In this document: piece by piece, positions 25,661 through 45,214 of the stretch | Position numbering within the stretch: the stretch's first letter is position 1 | How the letters are laid out: each line of letters starts with the position of its first letter | DNA from: an uncultured Actinomycetota bacterium | Lineage (GTDB): Bacteria > Actinomycetota > Actinomycetes > JACCUZ01 | Direction: 5' to 3' | DNA length: 64,000 bases | Assembly: GCA_963726615.1 (NCBI GenBank) | Contig: CAVSCX010000006.1 | Coordinates: 67,343 to 131,342, forward strand | Notes under the pieces: model-generated | Told to the model about the DNA's origin: nothing | Database searches by the model: none | The model's input: the letters and a program-made list of their open reading frames with translations, nothing else | Program-made: the position numbers and the translations under genes

Positions 25661-28600
25661 ATGCGCGGACTTCGGGCGGCCCCAGCGACAGTGACCTCGG
25701 GCCGGAGGGGCGGGGTACTTGCCCGCCGTCTGGCCAGCCAAGCGTCCCGACGGGCCGGCACCTTCTCCGTCGTCGCCGCGATGGTCTGTGGCTTCGTGAC
25801 GGCGCTCCCGGCGCTGCCGGCCCAGGCTGCGACGACGGACAGCCTCAGCGTGACCGTCGTCAGCGCCCGCACCGAGCCCCGCGCGTTCGGCGGTGCCGGC
25901 GTGCAGCTGAACGACCCGATCGACACGTTCTCGTGGATGGTCAACGTGGACGCGACCGGCACCACCGACCAGCGCAGCCCTGCGGTCGGATCCGGCTGCT
26001 CGGCCCTCGACGCCGACTACCCGGACAGCTGCCGGTGGCCGTCGATCGACGAGCCGTCCGGGTGGGCGCCCATCTACGCGCAGGGCACTCAGGACGACCT
26101 CCCGCTCACGAACATCCCCGACGGCCGCTACCTGATCTCTGTGGTCGCAGACGGCTACTCGATCGACGGCGCGCACTTCTGTGTCGACAACGCACCGCCG
26201 GCCGAGCCCGGCTGCGACTCGCCGCTGTCCGGCCCGGTCACCGTGGGGATGCAGCCCAACCCGCTGCCGGACTCGACCCTGCGGGGCCAGGTCTTCGAGG
26301 ACAACGCGCCCACCAACGGTGGACCGGACGCCAACGAGGCCGGCCTGGCCAACTTCGTGGCCCAGGTCAACGACACGCTGGGCGAGGTCAGCACCGACGT
26401 CTACGGCAACCCGCTGTGCACGACATACGTCGGCGAGGACCCGGACACGCACCTCATCCCGCTGGCGGACCTGGACGGGGACATGCTCCCCGTGGTGGAG
26501 CAGCTCGGCGGCAAGTGCAAGAGCGACGACACCGGCATGCTGACGGTGCCGCACCTCGGGCCCAACCGGTACACGCTCTCGGCCGTCGCGCCCGACGGGC
26601 AGACCTGGATCCAGACAACGACCCTCGAGGGCAACCACGACTACGACGCCTGGATGATGGAGGGCGACACCGGCTTCGACACGACCTTCGCCCGGGGCGG
26701 CGAGCCGACCCCGCTGCCGATCTTCGGCTACGTGCGCCCGACCAACGACCTCGCGGCGGGCGGCACTGCGCACGTCAAGGGTGTGGTCGTCGGTGTCAAG
26801 ACCTACACCCCGCCGACTGGCGGTTCCTTCGACTTCTGGGGCGGTAACACCGGGACCAAGGTCGGCGGACCCATCGACCGGCCGTGGCTGTCCCTGCAGG
26901 ACCTCGACAACGGCGACGTGGCCGTCTGGGTGGGTCGTGGCAACGCCGACGGCTCCTTCGACATCAGCGGTGTGCCGGCCGGCAACTACACGCTGACCTG
27001 GTGGGACGAGCCGCAGGACTACAACGTCAACTTCATCAACGTCACGGTGACCGCCGGCGAGACGGTGCAGATGGGTCAGCTGCCGCTGAACGGTTGGTGG
27101 ACCACGTACGACGGCTACGTCTTCAACGACACGAACCGCAACGGTGTCAAGGACGCGGGGGAGTCCGGCATCTCGGGCTTCGCCCTCACCATGCGTCACC
27201 GCGAGAACAACCTGATGGACCGTGGCACGCCGACGGCGGTGACCGACGCAAACGGCTACTACAAGTTCGAGAACGGGTATCCCCTCGGAGAGTGGCTGGT
27301 GATGGAGGCCTACAACGACGCCTTCTACACCACCGGAGTCACCTACCAGGCCGACAACCAGCCGACCCCCACCACGGTCAAGGGCGCTGGTGTCGACGTC
27401 AGCGTGATGCCGATCATCGGCCTCGGCGGGCGGTTGGACTGGGGCGTGCACGCCTACTCGCCCGGCGGAAACGGCATCGATCCTCGCAACGGTGGCATCG
27501 TCGGCACGGTCAGCTACGACACGACCCGCAACGAGCTCGACCCGCAGTACGCCGCCACCGAGGACTGGCAGCCGGGCATCTCCGGGGTCCCGGTCGAGCT
27601 CCACGCGCCGATCGACTGCGGCACCAACGCGGACACCCCGTGCGACGCCAACGAGCTCTACGAGCTGGCGCCGGACGGTTCCTACGCCCAGGGCAACCTG
27701 CTGAACACCTACACCACCGAGTCCTGGGAGCGGCCGACCGGTTGCACCGCTCGCGACGTGGACGGCAACGCACTCGTGCACGGCGTCGACGAGAACGTTC
27801 TCGTGCGCAACCAGGAGACCGACGGCGAGTGCATCTCCAGCTTCATGCAGGAGATCCAGTACGCCCCTTACCCGACCGACCAGGGGACCCCGGACGCCAA
27901 CTTCGGCGCGGCGGTGAACGGCAACTACGGCTTCGGCGACGGCTGCTTCCTACCGGACGGCTCGCCCGGCGAGTTCGACCCGGACAGCGAGAGCTGCTCG
28001 ACGGGGTCGCTCGGGCCGCTCCCCGGCGCTCGCGACTACCTCGTGCACGTCGCCATCCCGGACGACGCCACCGGCAAGCCGATGTACAAGGTCACCGGCG
28101 AGGAGGACATCAACATCGGCAACGGGGACCAGATCATCCCGCAGGTCCCGCCGCCGTCCTGCGCCGGACCGCTGCACACTGTCGACCTCGCCGGCGACGC
28201 GTCACCGGCCGTTCTCGAGACAGGTCTCGTGAGCTCGAACAACGCCCTGACCTGGACCGCCGTCACCGCCCCGGGCAACAACATCACGGTCGCGCTCGAC
28301 GCCAGCGGTGAGGACACTCCGCTCAGCGTGGACGTCACGGGCTCCGACATCGTGGTGAACCTGGCCACCGACAGCGGCGGCGCGGCGGTCTCCACAGCAG
28401 CCGAGGTCGCTGCTGCGGTCTCGGCTGACTCCGCCGCGGCAGCCCTGGTCAGCGTCGCCGACACCGCAGACTCGGACGGCACCGGAGTGGTGACCACGGC
28501 GCCGCCGCCGAGAACCTGGCCAACGGCACGGCCGACGGCTACCCGGCGGTGGTCGGTGACGGAGGGGTCACCAACGACCTGCCGGTCGGCGTCACGGTGC

Positions 28601-28702
28601 CTGCCTCGGCCCCGGTCGACAACGCCACCTTCCTCGACATCGGCGGCTCGCCGTACGAGGGCGCCCCGAAGCCACGGTGCGACACGAAGCTGGTCCGGGT
28701 GA
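25661..28702 (+). CDS. Large secreted multidomain surface protein, N-terminal segment (signal peptide, Cna-B/SdrD-B-like domains, and junk-looking translation after about 28,500)
   Basis: Signal peptide (VVAAMVCGFVTALPALPAQAA) and Cna-B-like repeats (GQVFEDNAPTNG..., YVFNDTNRNGVKDAGESGI). The protein-like translation ends near 28,500 and continues in the +2 frame. Confidence 0.6.
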   Translation: MRGLRAAPATVTSGRRGGVLARRLASQASRRAGTFSVVAAMVCGFVTALPALPAQAATTDSLSVTVVSARTEPRAFGGAGVQLNDPIDTFSWMVNVDATGTTDQRSPAVGSGCSALDADYPDSCRWPSIDEPSGWAPIYAQGTQDDLPLTNIPDGRYLISVVADGYSIDGAHFCVDNAPPAEPGCDSPLSGPVTVGMQPNPLPDSTLRGQVFEDNAPTNGGPDANEAGLANFVAQVNDTLGEVSTDVYGNPLCTTYVGEDPDTHLIPLADLDGDMLPVVEQLGGKCKSDDTGMLTVPHLGPNRYTLSAVAPDGQTWIQTTTLEGNHDYDAWMMEGDTGFDTTFARGGEPTPLPIFGYVRPTNDLAAGGTAHVKGVVVGVKTYTPPTGGSFDFWGGNTGTKVGGPIDRPWLSLQDLDNGDVAVWVGRGNADGSFDISGVPAGNYTLTWWDEPQDYNVNFINVTVTAGETVQMGQLPLNGWWTTYDGYVFNDTNRNGVKDAGESGISGFALTMRHRENNLMDRGTPTAVTDANGYYKFENGYPLGEWLVMEAYNDAFYTTGVTYQADNQPTPTTVKGAGVDVSVMPIIGLGGRLDWGVHAYSPGGNGIDPRNGGIVGTVSYDTTRNELDPQYAATEDWQPGISGVPVELHAPIDCGTNADTPCDANELYELAPDGSYAQGNLLNTYTTESWERPTGCTARDVDGNALVHGVDENVLVRNQETDGECISSFMQEIQYAPYPTDQGTPDANFGAAVNGNYGFGDGCFLPDGSPGEFDPDSESCSTGSLGPLPGARDYLVHVAIPDDATGKPMYKVTGEEDINIGNGDQIIPQVPPPSCAGPLHTVDLAGDASPAVLETGLVSSNNALTWTAVTAPGNNITVALDASGEDTPLSVDVTGSDIVVNLATDSGGAAVSTAAEVAAAVSADSAAAALVSVADTADSDGTGVVTTAPPPRTWPTARPTATRRWSVTEGSPTTCRSASRCLPRPRSTTPPSSTSAARRTRAPRSHGATRSWSG

Positions 28703-31700
28703 ACAACGGCAAGTCGATCGTGCCGATCTTCAATGTCTTCACCGACGTCCCGGTCCCGGCCCGGATGCGCACGGTCATCATCGACGACCTGAACTTCTCG
28801 ACCGACCCGCGCTCGATCATGTACGGCGAGAAGGCCGGTCTGGCCTTCGCCCCGGTCGGCATCTACGACTTCAACAACCGGCTCGAGTACACGACTGAGA
28901 CAGACTTCAACGGCATCTACGACGTTCTGATGCCGTCCACCGACCACATCAGCTGCCCGACGCCCTCCGGCCTGTGCGCGAACATGTACCGGTTCGTGGC
29001 CAACGACCCGGGTGTCCCGGGGCGGCTGAACCTGAACTACAACCCACGGTTCGCCACCCATGCCGCCGGTGCGGAGGGACTGCCTGGCCTGAGCACGTTC
29101 GCCGACCTCGCGCCCACCCAGGTCGGGCTGACCATCGAGCGACCGGGAAGCGGTGTGCAGCAGGCGGTGACCTGTCCGCTCGGCTCCGGCACGCCGCAGC
29201 TGCTCACCGTCTCCCAGCCTTACGTCAACGGCAGCGGTTCCTTCACCATCAACGGCACCGGGTTCGGTGCCACCAAGGGCGCCGGGAAGGTGACCCTCGA
29301 CGGCAGCATCGTGCTGCCGACGACCGGGTGGAACGACACCACGATCGGCGTCACGGTGCCGGCCGGCACGGCCGTCGGGGCCCACCAGCTCGAGGTCACG
29401 GCCGACAACGGTCAGACCACGGTGAACGGCCTCACCTTCCACGTCCGCGGCACGGGATACAACCCTGCGCTGAGGGAGGTCGGCCCCGGGAAGACGTTCG
29501 CCACCATCCAGGCGGCGCTGGACGCGGCGTTCACCAACAACGGTGATGACCTTGTCGTCGTCTACCCGGGCACGCCGGACCTGGTGAACCCGCGGAACAA
29601 CCCCCTCGGTGCCTACTACGAGAACCTGATCATGGCCTCGCCGGTCAAGCTCCAGGGCGTCGGGCCAGGCGGGTTCCAGGGCAGCACGTACCTGCCCGGT
29701 TCGATCATCGACGCGAGCGCCTTCGGCGGTGACACCCAGGTCGCCACCGACTGGTTCACGAGGGTCGGTGCCCTGACCTGGGACGGCAACCAGACTGTCA
29801 GTGACGCCGAGGCGATCTACGTGCTGGCGTCGGAGAACGCCACCACCGCCCCCGGCCGGGCACGACAGTTCACCGGCGGGTTCAAGGCGAGCATCGACGG
29901 CTTCGACCTGCGTGGCGGCATCCAGAACGGGTTCCCGGGCAACATCAACGACCTCACCGGGTTGCCCACCGGGCTGCCGCCGACGATCGAGACCCAGGGC
30001 GGCGCCATCTTCGCGAACGCTTTCGCCCGGTACCTGCAGATCACCAACAACGTGGTCCAGAACAACGGCAGTGCCTTCGGCACGATCCGGATCGGCACGC
30101 CCGACCTGCCGGCGCCCGGTACCAGTCAGCACAACGAGAACCTCAGGATCGCCGACAACAGGATCATCAACAACGCCGGCACCAACCTGGCCGGCGGCGT
30201 CGGTCTCTTCGCGGGAACGGACAGCTACGAGGTGACCGGCAACGACATCTGCGGCAACTTCTCGGTCGAGTACGGCGGCGGCCTGAGCATCTACGGCCGC
30301 AGCCCGGGCGGGAAGATCCACCACAACCGGATCTTCTACAACATGTCCAACGACGAGGGCGGCGGCATCATGATTGCCGGCCAGCTGCCGGCCAACCCCA
30401 GTGCCCTCTCGCCGGGCTCGGGTCCGGTGGACATCTACAACAACCAGATCCAGGCCAACCTGGCCAACGACGACGGTGGCGGCATCCGCTTCCTCATGGC
30501 CGGCGGCCCCGGTGGCACCGACGCCATGAACGTCTACAACAACATGATCGTGAACAACGTCTCGACGCACGAGGGCGGGGGCATCGGGCTCAACGACGCA
30601 CCCAACGTCCGGGTCGTGAACAACACCATCATGAAGAACCTGACGACGGCGACCGCCGTCACGTCCAACGGGCAGCCCGCCCCGGCCGGGCTCTCGACCT
30701 CGGCAAACAGCGTCCAGCTGCAGGCAACCCTTCCGGGCAGCGCTCCGACGTTCAGCAACCCGACCCTGTTCAACAACATCTTCTGGGACAACCGGGCGGG
30801 GACCCGTGCCGGGACGAAGGTCACCGGCATCGGTGCCGCCGGGGACGCGGCCCCGATCGACCACTGGGACGTGGGCGTGGCTGACGGCACCGGTCTGCTG
30901 GCGCCGACGAGCTCTGTCGTCCAGCTGGACAACGGTGGCCACCCCTACACCGCCAGCGCGTCCAACTCGTCCGCCGACCCGCAGGTCGTCGACGACAGCT
31001 ACGACGTGTCGGCGTCCTTCGTGACGTGGCGGCAGAACCCGGCCTTCGTCGACGCAACCCTCGTGGCGGTGGAGCTGCCGCCGAACCAGCAGGGGAACTA
31101 CCACCTCACGGCGACGTCGCCCGCGGTCGACCTGGGTGTGCCGAACCTGGGCGGGGTCAATGCGCCGGCGACCGACATCGACGACCAGGCCCGGCCGGCC
31201 GGCGCCGCCTTCGACAGCGGTGCGGACGAGTACCTGGCTGCGGCGCCGCCTCCTCCGCCGACGAGCTCCGACCTGTACTTCTCGACGACCGGGAACGCGA
31301 ACCCGCCGGGAGTCACCGGCACGGCCGACGACGCGGACATCTACCGGTGGAACGGCACCGCCTACAACCGGGAGATCGACTTCACTGCCGCGCCCTACAA
31401 TCTGCCTGCCAGCGCGAACGTCGACGGGTTCTCCCGGGTTGACGCGAACCACTTCTACCTGTCCTTCACCGCCAGCGTCAGCCTGCCAGGGTTCGGCACC
31501 GTGGCGGACGAGGACGTCGTGTTCTGGAACAACGGGTCGTGGTTGCTCTGGTTCGACGGCAGCACGCACGGCGTGGCCGGCGACATCGGAGCGGTCAGCG
31601 TGGCCGGGACGACCATGTACTTCTCTACCAAGAACAACGCGGTGCCGCCGGGGGCCGGTGGTCCCGGCGACAACGCCGACATCTACCGGTGGAACGGCGG

Positions 31701-32730
31701 CAGCTCGTACACCCGGATGGTCGACGCCAGCGCGGCGCCGTACAACCTGCCGAACTCCGGTTCCGGCACCGGTCCGACCAACCCCAACGTCGACGGCCTG
31801 ATCTGGGTCGGCCCCAACGACTTCTACCTGTCGTTCAGCAACACGACGACCACCATGCCCGGCGGGCTTGGCGCCGTCCAGGACGAGGACGTCGTGCACT
31901 GGACCGGTTCGTGGTCGGTGTGGTTCGACGGCACCGCCCACGGCCTGACCTCCAACGCCCTGGACCTCGACGCCATCGCGTTCGCCTCAGGCGCACTTGC
32001 GCCGCCTCCGCCGCCACCGGTCCCGCCGGCGCCGCCGCTGGAGTTCTCCACGCTGGGGAACACCAACCCGCCCGGGGTCAGCGGCACGGCCGACGACGCC
32101 GACATCTACCGGTGGGACGGGGCCTACAGCCGGGCGCTGGACCTCTCCGCGGCGCCCTACAACCTGCCGGGCAACGCCAACGTGGACGGCTTCGACCGGG
32201 TGAACGCCACCCAGTTCTACGTCTCCTTCTCCGCGGCCAACACCACCGTGCCGGGACTTGGCGCGGTCCAGGACGAGGACGTGCTGTTCTGGAACGGCAG
32301 CGCCTGGTCGGTGTGGTTCAACGGCACCGCACACGGGCTGACGGCCGCCGACGCAGACCTCGATGCGATCAGCATCGTCGGGTCGACGCTGTACTTCTCG
32401 ACGCTGGGCAGCATCAACCCGCCGGGTGTCACCGGGACGGCCGACAACTCCGACATCTACAGCTGGAACGGCAGCGCCTACGCCCGGGTGTGGGACGCCA
32501 CGGCGAACGGGCTCCCGGCCGCCACGAACGTCGACGGCTACGTGCGGGTGAGCGCCACCCAGTTCTACCTGTCCTTCAGCCCGGCGACCACGGCCGTCTC
32601 GGGTCTGGGCACCGTGGAGGACGAGGACGTCGTCTACCGCAACGGCAGCACCTGGTCGGTGTACTTCGACGGCACCGCTCATGGGCTGACCACCGCCAAC
32701 CTCGACGTGGACGCCTTCGATGTCCCGTAA
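28549..32730 (+). CDS. Large secreted multidomain protein, continuation segment: IPT/TIG domain, right-handed parallel beta-helix (pectate-lyase-like) repeats, poly-Pro linkers, and a C-terminal 4x tandem-repeat domain
   Basis: The frame is open and protein-like from 28,498 onward (GAAAENLANGTADGYPAVVGDGGVTNDLP). Beta-helix repeats (NNVVQNNGSAFGTIRIG, HNRIFYNMSNDEGGGIMIAG, NNMIVNNVSTHEGGGIGLN). The C-terminal repeats end ...LDVDAFDVP. Confidence 0.65.
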   Translation: MVGDGGVTNDLPVGVTVPASAPVDNATFLDIGGSPYEGAPKPRCDTKLVRVNNGKSIVPIFNVFTDVPVPARMRTVIIDDLNFSTDPRSIMYGEKAGLAFAPVGIYDFNNRLEYTTETDFNGIYDVLMPSTDHISCPTPSGLCANMYRFVANDPGVPGRLNLNYNPRFATHAAGAEGLPGLSTFADLAPTQVGLTIERPGSGVQQAVTCPLGSGTPQLLTVSQPYVNGSGSFTINGTGFGATKGAGKVTLDGSIVLPTTGWNDTTIGVTVPAGTAVGAHQLEVTADNGQTTVNGLTFHVRGTGYNPALREVGPGKTFATIQAALDAAFTNNGDDLVVVYPGTPDLVNPRNNPLGAYYENLIMASPVKLQGVGPGGFQGSTYLPGSIIDASAFGGDTQVATDWFTRVGALTWDGNQTVSDAEAIYVLASENATTAPGRARQFTGGFKASIDGFDLRGGIQNGFPGNINDLTGLPTGLPPTIETQGGAIFANAFARYLQITNNVVQNNGSAFGTIRIGTPDLPAPGTSQHNENLRIADNRIINNAGTNLAGGVGLFAGTDSYEVTGNDICGNFSVEYGGGLSIYGRSPGGKIHHNRIFYNMSNDEGGGIMIAGQLPANPSALSPGSGPVDIYNNQIQANLANDDGGGIRFLMAGGPGGTDAMNVYNNMIVNNVSTHEGGGIGLNDAPNVRVVNNTIMKNLTTATAVTSNGQPAPAGLSTSANSVQLQATLPGSAPTFSNPTLFNNIFWDNRAGTRAGTKVTGIGAAGDAAPIDHWDVGVADGTGLLAPTSSVVQLDNGGHPYTASASNSSADPQVVDDSYDVSASFVTWRQNPAFVDATLVAVELPPNQQGNYHLTATSPAVDLGVPNLGGVNAPATDIDDQARPAGAAFDSGADEYLAAAPPPPPTSSDLYFSTTGNANPPGVTGTADDADIYRWNGTAYNREIDFTAAPYNLPASANVDGFSRVDANHFYLSFTASVSLPGFGTVADEDVVFWNNGSWLLWFDGSTHGVAGDIGAVSVAGTTMYFSTKNNAVPPGAGGPGDNADIYRWNGGSSYTRMVDASAAPYNLPNSGSGTGPTNPNVDGLIWVGPNDFYLSFSNTTTTMPGGLGAVQDEDVVHWTGSWSVWFDGTAHGLTSNALDLDAIAFASGALAPPPPPPVPPAPPLEFSTLGNTNPPGVSGTADDADIYRWDGAYSRALDLSAAPYNLPGNANVDGFDRVNATQFYVSFSAANTTVPGLGAVQDEDVLFWNGSAWSVWFNGTAHGLTAADADLDAISIVGSTLYFSTLGSINPPGVTGTADNSDIYSWNGSAYARVWDATANGLPAATNVDGYVRVSATQFYLSFSPATTAVSGLGTVEDEDVVYRNGSTWSVYFDGTAHGLTTANLDVDAFDVP

Positions 32731-32770
32731 CCGCGCCGGCGACGGCATCCCGAAGGGATCAGGTGACCCC

Positions 32771-34135: not shown

Positions 34136-34140
34136 GCGCC

Positions 34141-35481: not shown

Positions 35482-35500
35482 CGAGAGAGGGCGGGACGAC

Positions 35501-38482
35501 ATGACGCGAGGGACGACGATGAAGAAGGCAGCTCTGTCTCTGCTCGGCGCCGGTGCGCTGGCGGCCCTGGGCATCCTGGCGGGACCGGCTGGTCCGGCGT
35601 CCGCCGCCGCCGTGACGATCGACCTCTACACCGCAACGGGCACTACCAGCCTGCCCGGGGCGGCGTCGCTCCCGGTGTGGGGGTACCGCACCAGCGCGGG
35701 CGCGGTGACCCAGCCCGGTGGCCCGGTGCTCACTGTCGACGAGGGCGACACGGTCACCATCACGCTGCACAACGGCCTCTCCGAGTCCACGGGCCTGCTT
35801 CTGCAGGGCCAGCGAATGGTCCCGGACCGCAGCGGTGTGTCCGCCGGCGGCACCAAGACCTACAGCTTCACCGCGAGCGACCCGGGTACGTACCTGTACG
35901 AGGCAGCGCTGCTCCCGAACGCCCAGCACCAGGTGGCGATGGGGCTCTACGGCGCTCTCGTGGTCCGGCCCGCCGGCGCGCCCGGCCAGGCCTACGGTGC
36001 TGCGAGCACGGCGTTCGACGACCAGGCTGTGCTGCTCCTCAGTGAGATCGACCCGGCGTTGAACAACGCGGGCAACAAGGCGACCTTCGACATGCGCAAG
36101 TTCGCGCCGCGCTACTTCCTGGTCAACGGCAGGGCGCACCCGGCGACCACCACGATCCCGACCACAGGTGGGCGCACGGTGCTCCTGCGCTACGTCAACG
36201 CGGGCATCCAGTACCACTCGATGTCCGTCCTGGGCGCGCACCAACGGGTCATCGCCCTCGACGGCAGCCGGTTGGACTACGCCCGCAGGTACGTCGCGGA
36301 GACCTTCGGCCCCGGCCAGACCGCCGACGCCCTCGTCACGGCCCCGGCCGCGGCGACCGATACCAAGCTGAGCGTCTACGACGGCAGCCTGCAGCTGCAC
36401 AACAGCAACACCGGCGGGATCGGCGGCATGCTCACCTCGATCGACGTGGCGCCCAGCCTCTCGGGAGGCGACACGACCGGCCCGATCACCACGGCCGCGA
36501 CCTTGACGGGTACCACCCTGACCGCGCATGTCGACGACTCCACCCGGGGTGGTGCGGACGTCCAGGCGGCTGAGTACTTCCTCGACACTGTCGTCGCACC
36601 GGGCGACGGGACAGGCATGGCCGGTGCCTTCAGCTCGGCGGCAGTCGACGTCACCGCGACGTCGGTGTCGGTCCCGAGCGGGCATCACGTGCTTTACCTG
36701 CGAGGGCAGGACTCGACGGGCAACTGGGGGCCGCTCACCTCGGTGCTGGTCTCCGGCGGCGACGCCAACGGCCCGGTCACCAGGAGCGCGCTCCTCGCGC
36801 CCCGGCTCACGAACCACGCCAACACCGGCGGGGTGGCCGTCTCCGCGACCGGCGACGACAGCGGCACCGGAGGATCAGACATCACCGCCGGCGAGTACTG
36901 GATCGACGGCGGCTCGCACGTCGCCATGACTGTGAACACGGCAGCACCGGTGGCCAGCCTGGACGCCACCATCCCGGCCGGCGTCATCAACGGAGTCGGC
37001 GCTACCCCCGGGCTCGCCGAAGGCACCCGGGTCGTGTCCATCCGCAGCCAGGACGCCGGGGGCACCTGGGGCGCACCCGTCACGGTCAACCTGGTGGTGG
37101 ACGTCACACCACCGACGACTGGTGGCGTCTCGGTGAGCCCGACGCCGAACAACGGCACCCTGCCCGTCAACACCAGCACGCCGGCGGTGCGGGTCACTGC
37201 GACGAGCCTGTCGGACCCGATCTCCAGCGACGTCAACAGCCCGATCGGTGCCGCCGAGGTGTTCATCGACACGGTCGGTGCCAACGGCTCGGGCATCCCG
37301 CTGGGCGCCAGCGACGGGGTCTACAACGATCCGTCCGAGGGCGGGTACGCCGACATCCCGCTGTCGACCGTCAAGGCACTGGGCAACGGCCCGCACACGC
37401 TGTCCGTGCACGCCAAGGACGCTGCCGGCAACTGGGGCGCCTTCGCCACCACGACGCTGCTCGTCGACAAGGTCGGCCCCGCCGTCTCTGGCGCCTCGGC
37501 GACCCCGAACCCGACCCAGGCGGCCACGTCGGTGACGCTGACGGCGTCGGCGACGGACACCGCCACCGCCATCACGCAGGCCGAGTGGTTCACCGGGACC
37601 GACCCCGGCTTCGGGAACGGCACGCCGATGGCCATGTCCGGCTCCGGGCTCGGTCCGATCGGGCTCTCGGCCACCATCGACGTGAGCAGCTGGAACGAGG
37701 GCTCGTACGCCCTGCGGGTGCGGGCGAAGGACACGGCGGGCAACTGGGGGACGACCACGAGCACGACGCTCGCGGTGACCGCGCCGCTCGAGTTCTCCAC
37801 GTTCGGCAACACGAACCCGCCAGGTGTGACCGGCACGGCTGACGACGCGGACATCTACGGCTGGAGCGGGTCGGCGTTCAGCAGGGTGCTCGACATGTCG
37901 GCCGCGCCGTACAACCTGCCGGGCAACGCCAACGTGGACGGGTTCGACCGGGTCAGCCCGTCGACGTTCTACCTGTCCTTCAGCGGCGCGACCACCACCG
38001 TGCCCGGGCTCGGAGCGGTCCAGGACGAGGACGTGCTGTTCTGGAACGGCACCACCTGGTCGGTGTGGTTCGACGGGACGGCGCACGGCCTGACCGCCGC
38101 GAACCAGGACATCGACGCGATCAGCGTCGTCGGCTCCACGCTGTACTTCTCCACGGTCGGCAACACCAACCCGCCGGGAGTCGGCGGTGCGGCAGACGAT
38201 GCCGACATCTACAGCTGGAACGGCAGCTCCTACGCCCGGGTCTGGGACGCCACCGCCAACGGCCTCGCCGGCGCCGCCAACGTCGACGGCCTGGTGTTCC
38301 TGGACAGCAGCCACTTCTACCTGTCCTTCAGCCCCACCACCACGACCGTGCCCGGCCTGGGAGCCGTCGAGGACGAGGACGTGGTCTACAACAACGGCGG
38401 CACGTGGAAGGTCTACTTCGACGGCACCGCCCACGGACTGACGGCGGCCAACCTCGACGTGGACGCCTTCGATGTGCCGTGA
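35501..38482 (+). CDS. Secreted cupredoxin-like (ligand-less MCO-like) / Ig-like-domain protein with the shared C-terminal tandem-repeat domain
   Basis: Signal peptide (MKKAALSLLGAGALAALGILAGPAGPASA). Its N-terminal 280 aa are homologous to the N-terminus of the 34141 protein. GNWG-containing Ig-like repeats are present. The C-terminal repeats are identical in type to those of 28549-32730 and 40917-43412. Confidence 0.7.
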   Translation: MTRGTTMKKAALSLLGAGALAALGILAGPAGPASAAAVTIDLYTATGTTSLPGAASLPVWGYRTSAGAVTQPGGPVLTVDEGDTVTITLHNGLSESTGLLLQGQRMVPDRSGVSAGGTKTYSFTASDPGTYLYEAALLPNAQHQVAMGLYGALVVRPAGAPGQAYGAASTAFDDQAVLLLSEIDPALNNAGNKATFDMRKFAPRYFLVNGRAHPATTTIPTTGGRTVLLRYVNAGIQYHSMSVLGAHQRVIALDGSRLDYARRYVAETFGPGQTADALVTAPAAATDTKLSVYDGSLQLHNSNTGGIGGMLTSIDVAPSLSGGDTTGPITTAATLTGTTLTAHVDDSTRGGADVQAAEYFLDTVVAPGDGTGMAGAFSSAAVDVTATSVSVPSGHHVLYLRGQDSTGNWGPLTSVLVSGGDANGPVTRSALLAPRLTNHANTGGVAVSATGDDSGTGGSDITAGEYWIDGGSHVAMTVNTAAPVASLDATIPAGVINGVGATPGLAEGTRVVSIRSQDAGGTWGAPVTVNLVVDVTPPTTGGVSVSPTPNNGTLPVNTSTPAVRVTATSLSDPISSDVNSPIGAAEVFIDTVGANGSGIPLGASDGVYNDPSEGGYADIPLSTVKALGNGPHTLSVHAKDAAGNWGAFATTTLLVDKVGPAVSGASATPNPTQAATSVTLTASATDTATAITQAEWFTGTDPGFGNGTPMAMSGSGLGPIGLSATIDVSSWNEGSYALRVRAKDTAGNWGTTTSTTLAVTAPLEFSTFGNTNPPGVTGTADDADIYGWSGSAFSRVLDMSAAPYNLPGNANVDGFDRVSPSTFYLSFSGATTTVPGLGAVQDEDVLFWNGTTWSVWFDGTAHGLTAANQDIDAISVVGSTLYFSTVGNTNPPGVGGAADDADIYSWNGSSYARVWDATANGLAGAANVDGLVFLDSSHFYLSFSPTTTTVPGLGAVEDEDVVYNNGGTWKVYFDGTAHGLTAANLDVDAFDVP

Positions 38483-38551
38483 CGACTGGGCCGGCCGGCC
38501 TCCCACCCCTCACGGAGGCCGGCCGGCCCTAACCGAGGGGGAACGATCCGG

Positions 38552-39058
38552 ATGAGCACTGCGACCCTGCCCGACGCCGATGTCCAGCCGGAAGACCCGG
38601 CCCCGCCTCGCCGGTGGCGCTGGGCGGTGCTCGTCCTCGTGCTCGCCCTGCTCGCTGGTGGCTTCGCGGCCCGCGGCCTGTGGGCCGAGCAGAAGGCGGA
38701 CATCCGCTCGGGAACGACGCTGGTGGACGCCGACGGGCTGGCGGCCCGCTACGGCGTGAAGGTCACACTGCTGGCCGTGACCGCAGCGGGGGGCCTCGTC
38801 GAGCTCCGCTACCAGGTCGTCGACCCGGACAAGGCCGACGCCCTGCGGCACGACCTCGAGCTCGTCCCGGCCATCGTGGTCGAGGACACCGGGGCCACCT
38901 TGGTGCTGTCCTCGCTCCCGCACAACCATGGTGAGACCCGGCTGGGCGGCACCTACTTCTTCCTGTTCCCCAACGCACAGAACGCGCTCCACGCCGGCAC
39001 GCTGGTGACCCTTGTGGTGGGCGACGTGCGACTCGAGCACGTGAAGGCGCAGGGATGA
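38552..39058 (+). CDS. Membrane-anchored hypothetical protein, a possible periplasmic accessory of CopCD
   Basis: 168 aa with one N-terminal TM helix (WRWAVLVLVLALLAGGFAA). It is translationally coupled to the downstream CopC-CopD gene (stop overlaps start at 39055). Confidence 0.5.
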   Translation: MSTATLPDADVQPEDPAPPRRWRWAVLVLVLALLAGGFAARGLWAEQKADIRSGTTLVDADGLAARYGVKVTLLAVTAAGGLVELRYQVVDPDKADALRHDLELVPAIVVEDTGATLVLSSLPHNHGETRLGGTYFFLFPNAQNALHAGTLVTLVVGDVRLEHVKAQG

Positions 39059-40920
39059 CCGGAGGACGCTCGTGCGTGGTGCGCCGGCTCGCGTGGAGCC
39101 TGCTCGCTGCCGTGACCGTGCTCGTCCTGTCGGCAGTACCGGCGTCGGCTCACAGCGAGATCGAACGGTCCGACCCGCCGAACGGCGGCATGGTCGCCGT
39201 GGGCAGGACCACTCTGTCGCTCTCGTTCGGGGAGCGCGTCAACACCGGGGCGAGCACGTTCGAGCTGCACAGCCGGGACGGGACGCGCGCCGAGGCAACG
39301 GTCGAGCCGGCCGGCCGTGACGGCGGCCGGGTCGTGCAGCTGAGCACCGCGCCGCTGGCCTTCGGCATCTATAGCTTGGACTGGCGGGTCCTCTCGCTCG
39401 AGGACGGGCACCCGTCAAGCGGCTCGATCGTGTTCGGCGTCGGGCTGCGACCCGTCCTGGTGCCCTCGGGCGGCGCCGTCCGCCCGGAAGGCCCGAGCCT
39501 CGTCCTGCGGTGGGTGGACCTGTCGGCGATGCTGCTCGCGATCGGCGCGCTGGCGGTCTCCGGCCGGGTGCTCGGCTCGATGGGTGAAGCGGGGGCAGGT
39601 CCCCGACGACGGGCCCGCCGGATCGCCGCGGCGGCGGCCGGGCTGGCGATCGTGTCGGGGGCGCTCACACCAGTCGTGCGGACCCAGCGCGGGGGCAGCT
39701 CCCTCGGCGAGTGGGCAGGGCAGATCTGGGCGACCCTGACCGGCACCCCGTGGGGCCACCTGTGGCTGGCCCGGGAGCTCGCCGTCCTGCTGGCCGCGGG
39801 CGCGTTGTTGTCCTGGGCGACCAGGCGGCCGGACTCGGCCGGCCGGGTCCGGATCGCGCTGGTCGCCCTGGTGGCGTCCGCGTGGCTGGAGGGCTGGGCC
39901 GGGCACGCCTCGGCCCTGCCGACCCGGTCCGCGCTCGCTGGTCTTGCCGCGTCCGCCCACCTCGTCGCGGCGGGCGTCTGGGCCGGCGGCCTCGTCGTCC
40001 TGGCCCTGTGCGTGCTCCCGGTGATGCGGCGCGCCCCGGACCTTCGAGGTCCCGTCCTGGCGTCGGTGTGGCGAACGTTCAGCCCACGCGCTGCCGTCGC
40101 GTCGGTCGTCCTGCTGGCGACCGGTCTCTACGAGGCCGGGCGGCACGTGCCGACGCTGGGCTCGGTCACCGCGACGCTGTACGGCGGTGCCGTGGCCGCG
40201 AAGACGCTGCTGGTACTGCTGGCGCTGGCCCTGGCCGCGGTGAACACGCTTGTCGTCAACCCACGGCTGGCGGCGCGGGTGGGCCGGGCGATCGGGCGAC
40301 CTGAAGGGTGGGCGCCGGTGTCATTGCGACGGTTCACCACCGTGGTGATGGCCGAGGTGCTCGTCCTGGTCGTGGCGGCGGGGACCGCGGCTGTGCTCAC
40401 CTCCGTCCCGACCGCCCGCGAGATCGCTGCCGCCGCCCCGGTGACGGCTCCGGCATTCGACACCGTCGACGGCCTCTTCCTCACGGTCGAGGACGTTCCC
40501 GCGGGGCCGCACCGGAGCCGGCTGATCGTGCGGGTGCGGGCCACCGTCCTGCCCGAGCCGGCGCCCGTGACCGGAGTGGTGGTCCGTCTCGTCGGCCCCC
40601 GTGGCAGGCCGTCGCGCGTCACCCCGGAGCCGGTGGAGCCGGGCCGGTACGAAGCCGAGAAGCGCGCACCGTCCCCCGGGCGCTGGACCGCCCGGGTCGC
40701 CGTGCACCGGGCGGGGCTGCCGGACTCCGTGGCGCGGGTCCGGTGGACGGTGGCAGCGCCGACCTCGAACACGGTCCGCCCGCTCGAGGTTGTCACCACC
40801 GGCGTCGCCGGGCTGCTGCTGGCTGCCCTGCTGACTGTCGTCTGGCACGCCCGCGTGCGCCGACCGCCCGCGGCTCCCGGGCCGGTCGCACCCGTGCTGA
40901 CCGACGCGAGCCGGCGATGA
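39055..40920 (+). CDS. CopC-CopD fusion copper-resistance/uptake membrane protein
   Basis: N-terminal CopC domain (signal peptide then AHSEIERSDPPNG) followed by eight predicted TM helices of CopD type. Confidence 0.8.
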   Translation: MTGGRSCVVRRLAWSLLAAVTVLVLSAVPASAHSEIERSDPPNGGMVAVGRTTLSLSFGERVNTGASTFELHSRDGTRAEATVEPAGRDGGRVVQLSTAPLAFGIYSLDWRVLSLEDGHPSSGSIVFGVGLRPVLVPSGGAVRPEGPSLVLRWVDLSAMLLAIGALAVSGRVLGSMGEAGAGPRRRARRIAAAAAGLAIVSGALTPVVRTQRGGSSLGEWAGQIWATLTGTPWGHLWLARELAVLLAAGALLSWATRRPDSAGRVRIALVALVASAWLEGWAGHASALPTRSALAGLAASAHLVAAGVWAGGLVVLALCVLPVMRRAPDLRGPVLASVWRTFSPRAAVASVVLLATGLYEAGRHVPTLGSVTATLYGGAVAAKTLLVLLALALAAVNTLVVNPRLAARVGRAIGRPEGWAPVSLRRFTTVVMAEVLVLVVAAGTAAVLTSVPTAREIAAAAPVTAPAFDTVDGLFLTVEDVPAGPHRSRLIVRVRATVLPEPAPVTGVVVRLVGPRGRPSRVTPEPVEPGRYEAEKRAPSPGRWTARVAVHRAGLPDSVARVRWTVAAPTSNTVRPLEVVTTGVAGLLLAALLTVVWHARVRRPPAAPGPVAPVLTDASRR

Positions 40921-43412
40921 GGCGGCTCTGTGTCGGCGCCGTGGCCGTGGCCGTCGCCGTCCTGCTCGCGGCGCCGACCCAGGTGTCGGCACGAACGATC
41001 CCCGAGCCCGCCCCGGGAACGCTCCGGCCGGACGTCGTGGCCCTGCTCGACAGCGCCGCTCCCGGTGACGAGGTCACCGTGATCGTCACGCTGCGGGACC
41101 GGGCAGACCTCCGTGGCCTGCGGCATCGGCCGCGCAAGGCCCGGCTGAGGGGCGTCATCACCGAGCTCCGGTCGACCGCAGAGTCCGCGCAGGTGCCGTT
41201 GCGCGGCCGCCTGCGCACCCTCGCGCGCCAGGGCACGGTGGCCGCCGCCACGCCGCTGTGGATCGTCAACGGGATCGCGGTGACCGCCACACCCGCCGTC
41301 GTCCGCGAGCTGGCGACACGTCCGGACGTCGCGAGCATCACCCCGGACGAGGTCCCCGTCGTCACCACTGCGGGCAGCCCCGAGCCGAACCAGGTCGCCA
41401 TCGGCGCACCCTCGCTCTGGGGCCTCGGGCAGTCCGGTCAGGGCGTGGTGGTGGCCAACCTGGACACCGGCGTGGACCTGTCCCATCCCGACCTCGCCGC
41501 ACGGTGGCGTGGCGGGAGCAACAGCTGGTACGACCCGTACGGGCAGCACCCCTCGACACCCACGGACCTGTCCGGCCACGGCACCGCGACCATGGGGGTG
41601 ATGGTCGGGGGCGACTCGGGCGGGACCTCGATCGGGACGGCCCCCGGCGCGAGCTGGATCGCAGCCAGGATCTTCAACGACTCCGGCGTCGCGACGGCGA
41701 CCGCGATCCACCAGGCGTTCCAGTGGGTGCTCGACCCCGATCACGACCCGGCCACCGATGACGCCCCGCGCGTCGTGAACGGTTCGTGGTCGATCGGCTC
41801 CGGCCCGGGTTGCGACCTGTCCTTCCAGCCCGACGTCCAGTCCTTGCGGGCGGCAGGCATCCTGCCCGTGTTCGCCGCCGGCAACTTCGGCTCGGGGGCA
41901 TCGAGCAGCGTCAGCCCGGCCAACTACCCGGAGTCGCTGTCGGTCGGTGCCGTGCTGGCCAGCAACAAGGTCTACTCGGCGAGCAGCCGCGGTCCCTCCG
42001 GCTGCGGCGGCCGGGCCCGGGTCTTCCCAGACGTCGTCGCTCCGGGTGTGAACGTGTACTCCGCGGACCGCTACGGCCTCTACCAGTACGCCTCGGGCAC
42101 CTCGATGGCCGCGCCGCACGCATCGGGTGCGCTGGCCCTGCTCCTGGCTGCCCACCCCGGGCTCACACCGGACCAGCAGCAGGCGGCGGTCACCACCACG
42201 GCGAGGGACCTGGGCGTGGCCGGACCGGACGACAGCTACGGCAACGGGCTGCTCGACCTTCCGGCCGCGAACCAGTCACTCGGAGGAACGCCGCAGCCGT
42301 CGCCCGACTTCGGCGTGTCCGTCGACCCGCCCGAAGCCGCTGTGACGCCCGGCGGCGGTTCGACCTGGACGGTCGCGGTCACGCCGGCGAACGGCTTCAC
42401 CGCAGATGTCGCGCTCTCGCTGTCCGGACTGGGCGCCGGCCAGGCGACCTGGTCGTTCAACCCTGCCACGGTCCCCGCGGGGACGGGCGCGTCCCAGCTG
42501 ACGGTGACCACCTCGTCGTCCCTCGGGGCGGGCAGCTATCCGCTGACGGTCACCGCCACGAGCGGCGCGCTCACCAGGACCACCACGGCGTCCCTCACGG
42601 TCGCGGCGCTTCCGCCGCCGCCTCCGCCGCCGCCGCCTCCGCCGCCACCGCCTCCGCCGCCACCGCCTCCGCCGCCTCCGCCGCCTCCGCCGCCGCCTCT
42701 CCCGACACCGGTGGGACTGGAGTTCTCGACTCTCGGCCTCACCCGGCCGCCCGGCGTCGCCGGAAGCGCTGACGACGCGGACATCTACGGCTGGAACGGG
42801 TCGGTGTTCAGCCGAGTGCTCGACCTGTCGGCGGCGCCGTACAGGCTGCCGGCCAAGGCCAAGGTGGACGGCTTCGACCGGGTCAGCCCGACCTCGTTCT
42901 ACCTGTCCTTCAGCGCCGCGAACACCACCGTCCCGGGTCTCGGGGCGGTCCAGGACGAGGACGTGGTGCTCTGGACGGGCACGAGGTGGACGCTGTACTT
43001 CGACGGCACCTCACGCGGGCTGACCGCCGACAACGAGGACCTCGACGCGATCAGCGTCGTCGGCTCGACGCTGTACTTCTCCACCGTCGGCAACACCAAC
43101 CCGCCGGGAGTTGCCGGGGCGGCGGACGATGCCGACATCTACAGCTGGAACGGCAGGTCCTTCGCCCGCGTCTGGGACGCGACCGCCCACGGGCTCGCCG
43201 GCGCGGCGAAGGTCGACGGCCTGGTGTTCCGTGACGCCACCCACTTCCACCTGTCCTTCAGCGCCGCGAACACCACCGTGCCGGGTCTCGGCGCGGTCCA
43301 GGACGAGGACGTGGTCTACGACAACGGCGGCACCTGGTCGGTCTACTTCGACGGCACGGCACACGGGTTGACCGGCAACACCCTCGACCTGGACGCCTTC
43401 GACCTGAGGTAG
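40917..43412 (+). CDS. Secreted subtilisin-like serine protease (peptidase S8) with a poly-Pro linker and the shared C-terminal tandem-repeat domain
   Basis: Catalytic triad regions (VVANLDTGV, HGTATMG, GTSMAAPHASG). A run of 28 prolines. The C-terminal repeats end ...LDLDAFDLR. Its ATG overlaps the CopCD stop (ATGA). Confidence 0.85.
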   Translation: MRRLCVGAVAVAVAVLLAAPTQVSARTIPEPAPGTLRPDVVALLDSAAPGDEVTVIVTLRDRADLRGLRHRPRKARLRGVITELRSTAESAQVPLRGRLRTLARQGTVAAATPLWIVNGIAVTATPAVVRELATRPDVASITPDEVPVVTTAGSPEPNQVAIGAPSLWGLGQSGQGVVVANLDTGVDLSHPDLAARWRGGSNSWYDPYGQHPSTPTDLSGHGTATMGVMVGGDSGGTSIGTAPGASWIAARIFNDSGVATATAIHQAFQWVLDPDHDPATDDAPRVVNGSWSIGSGPGCDLSFQPDVQSLRAAGILPVFAAGNFGSGASSSVSPANYPESLSVGAVLASNKVYSASSRGPSGCGGRARVFPDVVAPGVNVYSADRYGLYQYASGTSMAAPHASGALALLLAAHPGLTPDQQQAAVTTTARDLGVAGPDDSYGNGLLDLPAANQSLGGTPQPSPDFGVSVDPPEAAVTPGGGSTWTVAVTPANGFTADVALSLSGLGAGQATWSFNPATVPAGTGASQLTVTTSSSLGAGSYPLTVTATSGALTRTTTASLTVAALPPPPPPPPPPPPPPPPPPPPPPPPPPPPPLPTPVGLEFSTLGLTRPPGVAGSADDADIYGWNGSVFSRVLDLSAAPYRLPAKAKVDGFDRVSPTSFYLSFSAANTTVPGLGAVQDEDVVLWTGTRWTLYFDGTSRGLTADNEDLDAISVVGSTLYFSTVGNTNPPGVAGAADDADIYSWNGRSFARVWDATAHGLAGAAKVDGLVFRDATHFHLSFSAANTTVPGLGAVQDEDVVYDNGGTWSVYFDGTAHGLTGNTLDLDAFDLR
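42610..42698 (+). repeat. Simple-sequence (CCGCCGCCT)n-like repeat encoding a roughly 28-residue poly-proline linker
   Basis: Near-perfect 9-bp (3-codon) units within the S8 protease gene. Confidence 0.8.
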
Positions 43413-43458
43413 CGGACGCGGGGTGAACCGGCCTGAAGGTCCGGGCAGCGACCGACCG

Positions 43459-44577
43459 TCAGGCGGACAGGGCTGGAGCCGCGGCCGGAACCACCGGCGC
43501 GGTCGCCCGCGCCGGGTCGCGGAGCGGGATCCGTATGCCGACCAGAGCACCGCCGAGCTGGGACCGGGCCACGAGCACGTCGCCGCCGTGCGCCTCCGCT
43601 GCGGCCCGCACGTAGGCGAGCCCCAGACCCGTGCCGCCGCGCTCGGCGCTCTTGCGCCAGAACCGCTGGAACACCGCCTTGGCGTCCTCGGCCGCGATGC
43701 CGGGCCCGCTGTCGGCCACGCCCAGGAGCGCCGAGTTCTCGACCCGGCGACAGACGATCCGGACCTCGTCGCCCGGACCGGTCACGGCGACGGCGTTCTC
43801 GACCAGGGCATCAAGGGCGATCCGCGCGACGTCGTCGTCGGCCAGCGTCCCCATCGCGTCGGGGGCCTCCAACGACCACCGCCGCTCCACCGAGACCGAC
43901 CACCTGTCGTGCACGTCGGTCGCGAGCTGCCGCAGGTCGACCGCCCTCGGTGACAGCACGTCAGGGCGCTCCAGCTCGGCGATGGCGAGCAGGCGGCTGG
44001 CCATCCGGCCGATGCGGTCCAGCTCCGCGAGCGCGACGTCCGCATCGTGGCGGACCAGGTCGTCGTCGTCGGCGGCGGAGTCCCGGAGCAGCTCGATGTG
44101 ACCGCGGGCGATCGTGAGGGGTGTGCGCAGCGCGTGGGAGGTGTCCCGCGCGAGCTCGTGCTCGTGCAGCCGCCGCTCACGCTCCAGCTGCGCCATGTGC
44201 TCGACCTGCCGCTGCATCGCGAACCGGCGCCGGGCGTGCCACACCATCGCGCCGAGGATCGCCGGCATGAGGACGATCTCGAACATCTCGTCGCCCGGGA
44301 TCTGCCCGTCGACCCAGTGGAGGTAGAAGATGACGCCGGTCGTCGCCACGATCCCGCCGAGGACTGCGATGGTCACCGCCAGGGACCACACCCGGAAGCC
44401 GTAGACGGCAGCGAAGCTCACGAACAGGATGTGGTAAGGCACGGTCTCGAACCCGTGCATGACAAGCGTCGCGTACAGGAGCAGACCTGTCCACGCCGCG
44501 AACGCGAGGTCCACGCCGAGGCGCCAAGGACGACCTCCGGACGCGGCCGCCTCAGACGGCGAGCGCGTAGCCGACAT
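43459..44577 (-). CDS. Sensor histidine kinase (intramembrane-sensing type, four TM helices with no large periplasmic domain)
   Basis: HisKA region (HELARDTSHALRTPLT) and HATPase_c (GTGLGLAYV). Its start overlaps the upstream RR gene by 26 nt. Confidence 0.85.
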   Translation of the reverse strand: MSATRSPSEAAASGGRPWRLGVDLAFAAWTGLLLYATLVMHGFETVPYHILFVSFAAVYGFRVWSLAVTIAVLGGIVATTGVIFYLHWVDGQIPGDEMFEIVLMPAILGAMVWHARRRFAMQRQVEHMAQLERERRLHEHELARDTSHALRTPLTIARGHIELLRDSAADDDDLVRHDADVALAELDRIGRMASRLLAIAELERPDVLSPRAVDLRQLATDVHDRWSVSVERRWSLEAPDAMGTLADDDVARIALDALVENAVAVTGPGDEVRIVCRRVENSALLGVADSGPGIAAEDAKAVFQRFWRKSAERGGTGLGLAYVRAAAEAHGGDVLVARSQLGGALVGIRIPLRDPARATAPVVPAAAPALSA

Positions 44578-45214
44578 TGCGGATGGTCTCGATGAGGCCG
44601 TCCCCGAGCTTGCTGCGCAGCCGGCCCACGGTCACGTCCACCACGTTGCTGCCAGGGTCGAAGGCGTAGCCCCAGACCTCCCGGAGCAGCTCGTCGCGCG
44701 AGCACACCGACCCCTCGCGGCGCATCAGGTGCTGGACGAGGAGGAACTCTCGCGGGCTGAGATCGGCGGTGTGCCCGGACCAGGTGATCCGGTGTCGCGA
44801 CATGTCCAGCTGCACTCCGGCCGCCGAGACCATGGCGGCTCCTGAGATCGGTGCCGGCTCGGTGAGGCGCGAGCGCACCCTCGCCTTGAACTCGCGGACC
44901 ACGAACGGCTTGCCCACGTAGTCGACGGCGCCGCGCTCGAGGCAGGTGACGCGAGAGTCGGTGTCGCCGATGGCGGACAGCACGAACACCCGCTGCTGGG
45001 GCTTCGTCTCGAGCAGGGCCGACAGGACGGCCGTCCCCGGCATGTCCGGCAGCAGCAGGTCGAGGATCACCAGATCCCAGTCCTCGGTGCAGGCGCGGTG
45101 CAGACCGCTGAGACCGTCCGCAGCCGTGGCAACGGCGTACCCCTCGGGCTCCAGGATCCGACGCAGGAGCCGTCTCAGCCCTACCTCGTCGTCGATGCAC
45201 AAAATCCGGCTCAT
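44552..45214 (-). CDS. OmpR/PhoB-family response regulator
   Basis: Receiver domain (ILCIDDE...LVILDLLLPDMPG) with a winged-helix C-terminus (VDVTVGRLRSKL...IETIRNVGYAL). ATG at 45214, so the 526-aa ORF in the track is an upstream extension. Confidence 0.85.
   Translation of the reverse strand: MSRILCIDDEVGLRRLLRRILEPEGYAVATAADGLSGLHRACTEDWDLVILDLLLPDMPGTAVLSALLETKPQQRVFVLSAIGDTDSRVTCLERGAVDYVGKPFVVREFKARVRSRLTEPAPISGAAMVSAAGVQLDMSRHRITWSGHTADLSPREFLLVQHLMRREGSVCSRDELLREVWGYAFDPGSNVVDVTVGRLRSKLGDGLIETIRNVGYALAV

Follow-up and report, generated by a model that had tools for sequence, protein, structure and literature searches.

The 64,000-nucleotide stretch of an uncultured Actinomycetota genome analyzed here (the window) contains, at positions 25661–45214, a cassette of eight genes (G1 to G8) that is found in the same order in two bacterial phyla. 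At its centre lie three genes for paralogous, multicopper oxidase (MCO)-like proteins, G3, G4 and G5, of which the first two divide a set of copper ligands between them and the third has none. From this pattern we think it quite likely that the G3 and G4 products form a hetero-oligomer sharing one copper cluster. The wider proposal is that G3, G4 and G5 encode the α-, β- and γ-subunits of an obligate MCO with a single trinuclear centre between two gene products, and that this enzyme is the core of an unrecognized surface "oxidase machine" spread between the Actinomycetota and the Chloroflexota; here we see the chances as evenly balanced.

An earlier note on this DNA, drawn from its letters, had described a contiguous series on the + strand (giant β-helix protein, split MCO pair, a cupredoxin protein with immunoglobulin (Ig)-like domains and a C-terminal domain (CTD), small membrane protein, CopC-CopD fusion, S8 protease) and a response regulator (RR) and histidine kinase (HK) pair on the − strand that converges on its end. 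All of these genes are present, and each label was confirmed by Pfam and NCBIfam. Coding frames were picked by third-position GC content, which is 0.85–0.93 in the frames of the locus genes; raw lists of open reading frames (ORFs) are noisy at the ~72% G+C of the window. The features are:

25661–28702, + strand: G1, with SdrD_B, SpaA-like and prealbumin-like domains (Pfam, NCBIfam).
28429–32730 (open frame; annotated start GTG at 28699), + strand: G2, with TIG, weak Beta_helix/NosD and choice-of-anchor Q matches.
25661–32730, + strand: gene for the giant secreted protein (G1 + G2), a single ORF in relatives.
32720–34135, + strand: G3, putative α-subunit, with MCO domains (Cu-oxidase_3/_2, Cu-oxidase) and a twin-arginine translocation (Tat) signal.
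34141–35481, + strand: G4, putative β-subunit, Cu-oxidase_3, a paralogue of G3 predicted to be exported by the general secretory (Sec) pathway.
35501–38482, + strand: G5, putative γ-subunit, with Cu-oxidase_3 and Cu-oxidase, then Ig-like domains and a CTD.
38488–38529, + strand: GC hairpin with a perfect 16-bp stem, directly 3' of the G5 stop codon.
38552–39058, + strand: G6, one transmembrane helix, without a family match.
39055–40920, + strand: G7, CopC and CopD (Pfam).
40917–43412, + strand: G8, Peptidase_S8 (175.6 bits).
43459–44577, − strand: HK (HisKA/HATPase_c), converging on G8.
44552–45214, − strand: RR of the OmpR/PhoB type (Response_reg/Trans_reg_C), converging with the HK on G8.
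31273–31977 and 32038–32724 (G2), 37787–38479 (G5) and 42717–43406 (G8), + strand: CTD copies (tblastn).

In a scan of one genome per species, a relative of G3 was encoded in 295 species-level genomes of the Actinomycetota (Cellulomonas, Xylanimonas, Actinotalea, Humibacillus, Intrasporangium, Cryobacterium, Lacisediminihabitans, Nocardioides, Marmoricola, Nanopelagicales, and Ilumatobacteraceae) and Chloroflexota (Ardenticatenaceae and Chloroflexia). Eighty loci were taken with 10-kb flanks, 58 of which are fully covered. Searches by tblastn with every window protein found G1-G2-G3-G4-G5-G6-G7-G8 colinear in 51 of these 58; six of the remaining seven lack only a detectable CopC-CopD, and the last, from Chloroflexota, is rearranged. 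Median identities are 60% for G1, 68% for G2, 75% for both G3 and G4, 61% for the N-terminal part of G5 (G5N), 59% for G6, 49% for G7, and 63% for G8. Identity of G3 is 73–87% among the top 120 database matches, and between Actinomycetota and Chloroflexota G3 and G4 are ~70% identical. The earlier note had named conserved synteny in relatives as the check on a functional unit and scattered genes as the finding that would speak against it; since the genes are colinear in both phyla, the cassette is real. Its boundaries are also right, because the neighboring genes are conserved only in the nearest relative and not beyond. Judged by this conservation, the cassette is one functional unit, in an arrangement far beyond chance. 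The closest genome is the uncultured Actinomycetota metagenome-assembled genome MFD01275.bin.1.75.

Profile comparisons with hhalign gave a probability of 99.6 (30% identity) for G4 against G3, of 100 (38% identity) for G5N against G4, and of 100 (29% identity) for G5N against G3. By these alignments the three are paralogues that run colinear through a pair of cupredoxin domains, G5N being roughly the first 320 residues of G5. The split MCO pair of the earlier note is thereby borne out and extended to three paralogues with complementary ligand sets; G3, G4, and G5N always co-occur and are adjacent.

The ligands were followed through 81 G3 and 79 G4 orthologue sequences. In domain 1 of G3 the type-1 copper ligands H174, C220, and H227 and the trinuclear-cluster histidines H177, H179, H219, and H221 are invariant (81 of 81), as is, in a 15-sequence alignment, the type-1 copper residue M232. 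Domain 2 of G3 has no ligands, its positions reading T-M-A and N-R-N. In G4 the domain 1 ligands are all lost (...ATSIAFPG..., ...YESGT...) and domain 2 retains two HxH pairs, H310/H312 in 79 of 79 sequences and H414/H416 in 76–77 of 79. G5N has zero invariant histidines, and the type-1 copper positions are replaced in both G4 and G5N. In the hhalign pairing, the HWH and HCH motifs of G3 stand opposite ligand-free residues of G4, and the HPH motif of G4 stands opposite the TMA of G3. G3 has four further invariant histidines (H101, H137, H281, and H286) and invariant acidic residues (E223, D224, and E226) between the type-1 cysteine and histidine; these additional residues might form a metal-substrate site or an additional copper site.

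The closest solved relatives of G3 are two type-C two-domain MCOs, mgLAC (2ZWN; E 4e-11) and the blue copper oxidase of Nitrosomonas europaea (3G5W; E 1e-10), and G3 aligns to both domains of 2ZWN. Like G3, they have two cupredoxin domains with a type-1 copper site and HxH/HCH motifs in domain 1. Known type-C enzymes are homotrimers in which each trinuclear cluster lies where domain 1 of a chain meets domain 2 of its neighbor; every chain has eight cluster histidines, and there are three active sites. The cassette proteins share with them the two cupredoxin domains in one chain, but only G3 has the type-1 copper site in domain 1, and no single polypeptide holds the eight cluster histidines (four are in G3, four in G4, none in G5N). 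Such a division of ligands over two products, with a third paralogue that has none, implies one active site per three different chains. The cassette proteins differ further from type-C MCOs by the long insertions of G3 and G4, and by the Ig-like domains and the predicted propeller that G5 adds.

Because the ligands are divided between domain 1 of G3 and domain 2 of G4, the cluster would form only at the G3/G4 interface. A three-chain ring with a single active site needs one subunit with domain 1 ligands, one with domain 2 ligands, and one without ligands, which is the pattern seen in G3, G4, and G5; the distribution of ligands argues for a hetero-oligomer over a homotrimer. The most economical full model appears to be a G3-G4-G5 heterotrimer, to which we incline by a narrow measure. 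For domain 2 of G4, BLASTP to a fragment of 3G5W aligned the HPH motif with the domain 2 HTH motif of that protein (28.9 bits; single-comparison E 1e-6), and the motif also aligned, weakly, with the HLH motif of ascorbate oxidase.

Some of these results weigh against the heterotrimer. The alignments of domain 2 with MCOs of known structure are weak (14 bits and 28.9 bits), and the G4 profile, searched against the PDB, aligned over domain 1 only and gave no independent placement of the domain 2 histidines. The evidence for the trimer itself consists of ligand complementarity and gene adjacency. Alternatively, G3 could be the sole functional copper protein, for example one that carries electrons through its blue copper or that forms a homotrimer around an unusual cluster, and G4 and G5 could be non-catalytic binding modules, with no cluster between proteins; the weak second-domain alignments and the further invariant histidines of G3 would fit that explanation as well. 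We consider it improbable. It leaves H177, H179, H219, and H221 invariant without a known role besides binding a trinuclear cluster, G4 has lost its domain 1 ligands yet keeps exactly two domain 2 HxH pairs (in 76–79 of 79 sequences), and the three genes are found together, side by side, in every case.

The proposed ring can also be set beside the six-domain MCOs. In ceruloplasmin and Bacillus MnxG six cupredoxin domains form a ring with one trinuclear cluster and ligand-free domains elsewhere, in single polypeptides; MnxG works with accessory subunits. The G3-G4-G5 ring would resemble a ceruloplasmin split over three genes, with only one type-1 site kept. At the level of sequence, membership in the six-domain MCOs was not found, the ceruloplasmin matches to G3 being weak. 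A route from two-domain trimers to three- and six-domain MCO chains has been argued from sequence, and we know of no heteromeric intermediate between the two-domain trimers and the three- or six-domain single-chain MCOs.

We lean slightly toward the view that the cassette as a whole builds a copper oxidase held outside the cell. A Tat motif is present in 79 of 81 G3 sequences; it is unconserved in G4 and G5, which have Sec-type signals. Since G3 would be exported by Tat, and G4 and G5 carry Sec-type signals, the cluster would be completed outside the membrane. In the proposed mechanism, G3 would cross the membrane folded via Tat and bring in the blue type-1 copper together with four histidines for the trinuclear cluster at which O2 is reduced, and G4, exported via Sec, would give the other four from its domain 2. 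G5, which consists of a ligand-free cupredoxin paralogue (residues ~37–320), approximately four Ig-like domains, and a CTD with a predicted propeller fold, most likely closes the six-domain ring, like the third subunit in homotrimeric two-domain oxidases, and would tether the enzyme by its Ig-like stalk and four-bladed propeller. The CTD is carried by G2, G5, and G8, whereas G3 and G4 lack an anchor. As the propeller domain is common to the giant protein, G5, and G8, all of these probably sit at one surface site. The β-helix protein would be a probable substrate-binding or templating partner and G8 a probable processing enzyme; G6 and CopC-CopD probably supply copper, and the adjacent membrane-sensing two-component system probably controls expression. 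Our guess is that the substrate is a polymer, a phenolic or a metal ion held or templated at the surface by the β-helix protein.

The CTD is a unit of 231 residues. As the earlier note had it, three genes share this domain: tblastn found four copies in the 64 kb, two in G2 and one each in G5 and G8, and none elsewhere. The tandem copies of G2 (31273–32724) are 59% and 79% identical to the G5 copy (tblastn). The domain has no Pfam or NCBIfam match. An AlphaFold2 model from 48 sequences (predicted local distance difference test score 97; predicted template modeling (TM) score 0.93) is all-β, and the CTD is predicted to be a four-bladed β-propeller. Compared with hemopexin-like propellers (hemopexin domains of matrix metalloproteinases; chickpea lectin 3S18), it has 9–15% identity, no match to the Pfam hemopexin model and a TM-score below 0.5; the resemblance is one of fold only, not of family. 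The model thus suggests a propeller fold without a close solved relative.

An exhaustive profile search collected 3,221 cluster representatives of the CTD family at E ≤ 1e-3, almost all with the domain at the C-terminus. Among 45 sampled proteins, the CTD was joined to MCO-like (13), cadherin/Big_9 (approximately 10), S8 (6), He_PIG (6), and Calx-beta (2) domains. The CTD also occurs on cadherin/Ig-type surface proteins outside the cassette. These data fit an interchangeable surface-retention or binding module. That the anchor is interchangeable is also suggested by a variant locus in Chloroflexia (L077: 3751–9897, 16301–17140, 17701–19641, 491–3011), because its giant protein has DUF11 in the C-terminal part and no CTD. 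The protease of this variant also lacks the CTD, a four-transmembrane protein joined to another G6-like domain with His/Met-rich loops takes the place of CopC-CopD, and its neighboring two-component system is of the NarL/HisKA_3 type. Invariant aspartates in the CTD sequences suggest Ca2+ binding, and the domain might bind a glycopolymer of the cell wall or another protein as its partner. As a family without a Pfam model, the CTD merits a family definition.

The giant protein is present as the earlier note described, although in the window it is split into two ORFs by a 1-nt deletion. In a 99.7%-identical relative (P0504) it is a single ORF of 2,356 aa that reads through the G1/G2 junction, and it is one ORF also in the closest relative, L040 (2,266 aa), and in Humibacillus (2,237 aa). 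In the window, a G is missing at approximately 28505 (site 28499–28512, + strand) in GCGCCG[G]CCGCCGAG, a GCC/CCG-rich run, so that the gene leaves the frame of G1 and is read in that of G2 from about this point; at the junction the intact relative reads ...VVTTAPAAENLANG... and the window ...VVTTAPPPRTW... (frame 1) and ...AAAENLANG... (frame 3). The deposited annotation gives products of 1,013 aa and 1,343 aa. The break may be a recent frameshift or pseudogenization, or an assembly error. An optional Ala/Ser/Thr-rich insertion of ~100 residues at 28205–28512 is absent from L040 and present in L041 (5466–5756, 68% identity); it matches no family.

From its N-terminus the giant protein comprises a signal peptide, prealbumin-like/SdrD_B sandwiches, TIG, a right-handed β-helix of ~480 residues, and two CTD propellers. 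The helix is of the right-handed parallel kind found in the pectin-lyase-fold/CASH proteins, and its consecutive rungs carry the invariant acidic motifs EYGGG, DEGGG, NDDGGG, and HEGGG. Searched by sequence, the giant protein matched only the SdrD B domain in the PDB. The top fold match, "Rhombotarget A," is itself uncharacterized, and the similarity is generic, NosD and adhesins scoring alike; the β-helix is a generic polysaccharide-binding or -modifying fold. Across the two phyla the giant protein is 58–78% identical, and this conservation speaks for a surface with a specific binding or catalytic role, not for a simple adhesin.

Two other functions can be imagined for a cassette with such a protein. 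In the first, the cassette makes a structural surface fiber, sheath or matrix, in which the giant protein is the building block, the oxidase cross-links it (for instance through tyrosines or attached phenolics), and the protease matures it. Cross-phylum identity of this degree and invariant polar residues in the helix would be unusual for a purely structural adhesin, and we consider the fiber unlikely; it is compatible with the split oxidase and differs in the substrate alone. In the second, the cassette breaks down extracellular polymers, the pectin-lyase-fold protein cleaving or binding polysaccharide and the oxidase attacking phenolics such as lignin or humic material. This we regard as distinctly improbable. 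No family model of the CAZy type was matched in Pfam or NCBIfam, the fold similarity of the β-helix is the generic one just described, neither sugar transporters nor glycosidases accompany the cassette, and the hosts include oligotrophic Cryobacterium, Nanopelagicales-like, and Chloroflexota genomes.

G6 and G7 are the candidates for copper supply to the proposed oxidase. G6, which belongs to no known family in Pfam or NCBIfam and is present in 58 of 58 full loci, spans the membrane once and has a conserved extracytoplasmic domain (motif YG.xVxLxAVTAAGG...RYQV.DPDKA); in Chloroflexia, a second copy fused to a domain of four transmembrane helices stands where CopC-CopD would be. An obvious role as copper chaperone was rejected for now, as no His, Cys or Met is invariant. 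A variable His-rich loop reads PHNHG, PHQH, PHTHH or MGHHGH depending on the genome, and may be a weak or adaptable metal site. G7 matches CopC (53.9 bits; cut-off 23.3) and CopD (43.2 bits; cut-off 32.1) in Pfam and does not reach the equivalog cut-offs of NCBIfam (50 against 95 and 87 against 195). By eye, ASA/HSEIE..., which would put a His at the N-terminus once the signal peptide is cleaved, and ...LEDGHPSSG (D-x-H) look like what we take to be the Cu(II) motifs of CopC, and CopC is fused with CopD as in the importer-type YcnJ.

With the cop/pco operons (CopA-CopB-CopC-CopD with CopRS) the cassette shares MCO-type genes, CopC and CopD domains, and a two-component system with an OmpR-type regulator; unlike them, it has no CopB and adds the giant β-helix protein, the S8 protease, G6, and the Ig/propeller tether. 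This common content, together with a best NCBIfam match of the RR to a heavy-metal family (TIGR01387, 163 bits), would suit copper resistance or homeostasis, with MCO-like proteins detoxifying Cu(I), CopC-CopD handling periplasmic copper, and a CopRS-like system sensing it. The earlier note had doubted simple copper resistance, and we too hold it to be highly unlikely, because the family cut-offs are missed widely and other resistance genes are absent. G3, G4, and G5 score 30–42 bits against CopA TIGR01480 (cut-off 479) and 26–30 bits against CueO NF008205 (cut-off 525), and RR and HK stay under the heavy-metal cut-offs (163 against 279 for TIGR01387 and 83 against 293 for TIGR01386). The cassette has no CopB, P-type ATPase, CsoR/CopZ or other metallochaperone gene, and no Met-rich segment, and the HK has no periplasmic sensor domain. 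The invariant parts are instead the 2,356-aa β-helix protein, an Ig/propeller-tethered pseudo-oxidase, and a subtilase.

G8, as judged from its sequence, is an intact subtilase: the S8 domain scores 175.6 bits (cut-off 21.8) and the DTG, HGT, and GTSMA motifs are present. It is laid out as propeptide, S8 domain, poly-proline linker, and CTD propeller, and scores 115 against the cut-off of 279 for the mycosin equivalog of type VII secretion systems. The HK has a multi-pass membrane N-terminus without a large extracellular domain, and near-full-length relatives of it, sensor region included, adjoin G1 or G8 in other loci. An HK or RR adjoins the cassette in at least 34 of 58 loci (at least 59%; 22 upstream and 12 downstream), a lower bound given that the DNA reaches only ~0.5 kb past G8.

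A precedent for copper handling that matures a secreted cuproenzyme is the sco-ecuc-SLI_4212-dtpA operon of Streptomyces lividans together with cslA-glxA (PMC4736821). This operon encodes a putative copper transporter and a Tat-exported enzyme, and the cuproenzyme works with a glycan-active partner at the surface (PMC4736821). The S. lividans system differs in its parts, which are a radical copper oxidase, Sco, ECuC, and a DyP peroxidase, and has no MCO, giant protein or protease.

For the model of a surface-held oxidase with its own copper supply and regulation, several results point the other way. Deletion of SLI_4212, the putative copper transporter, left GlxA maturation unaffected in S. 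lividans (PMC4736821). CopC-CopD is undetectable in 6 of 58 loci, and on both counts the copper supply is uncertain. The two-component system is seen next to the cassette only in the loci counted above (at least 34 of 58). Foldseek of the CTD model against the PDB gave generic propeller matches only, all with TM-scores below 0.5. Finally, given the frameshift in the giant gene, the system may be defective in the window, unless the frameshift is an assembly error.

The earlier note had also taken overlaps of 4 bp (ATGA) between several genes to imply co-transcription. True ATGA overlaps are found at two junctions only, G6/G7 and G7/G8; the GTGA at G1/G2 is a by-product of the frameshift, and there are gaps of 5 nt between G3 and G4, 19 nt between G4 and G5, and 69 nt between G5 and G6. 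The cassette may be co-transcribed. The last of these gaps holds a strong hairpin (−45.2 kcal/mol; z −3.3). An uninterrupted stem of at least 10 bp follows G5 in 41 of 60 related loci, including Chloroflexota, as a raw count; the hairpins keep their position and are unrelated in sequence. The element is possibly an intra-operon attenuator, or a 3' stabilizer that divides G1–G5 from G6–G8. A scan of 25301–45300 for promoter and terminator consensus sequences returned zero promoter-like sites and zero + strand terminators, a result that is uninformative at 70% GC.

The genes flanking the cassette are unrelated housekeeping and transport genes: upstream, a 2-oxoglutarate dehydrogenase, an acyl-CoA dehydrogenase, an ArsR regulator with a major facilitator superfamily (MFS) transporter, and an F5/8-type-C protein; downstream, an MFS transporter and a sigma-70 factor. 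The dehydrogenase (16224–20147, − strand) is a fused protein of 1,307 aa with E1 and E2-like acyltransferase domains, consistent with an actinobacterial host. The upstream F5/8-type-C (discoidin) protein (secreted, 527 aa, 23480–25063) was considered as a cassette member and rejected as probably not belonging to it, since L040, the nearest relative, is the only one to conserve it (81%). Over 26001–38000 (G1–G5) the G+C content is 0.68–0.71, compared with 0.73–0.75 in the flanks, with a positive AT skew and a negative GC skew. Together with the ~70% identity of G3 and G4 between the phyla, these values hint at horizontal spread; amino-acid composition could explain the base composition.

The author of the earlier note did not recall this arrangement as described, and a full-text literature search for heteromeric or split MCOs, this gene combination, choice-of-anchor proteins, and MCOs in the host genera likewise retrieved no description of the cassette. 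Nor did it find a split or heteromeric MCO described; the sole "heterotrimer" match concerned a proteolytic variant of a homotrimer. If the proposal is true, G3-G4-G5 would be, to our knowledge, the first natural heteromeric MCO with a cluster shared between gene products, and an extant link from the homotrimeric oxidases of two domains to six-domain MCOs like ceruloplasmin. A natural MCO of three genes and one active site would open the route from trimer to single chain to experiment, and would be a minimal system for the assembly of a copper cluster between proteins exported separately by Tat and Sec. The cassette is an uncharacterized, very strongly conserved module that approximately 300 species-level genomes share, from bacteria common in soil, glaciers, and fresh water. 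Carbon or metal cycling could be affected by whatever it may oxidize, be it a metal, a phenolic or a polymer.

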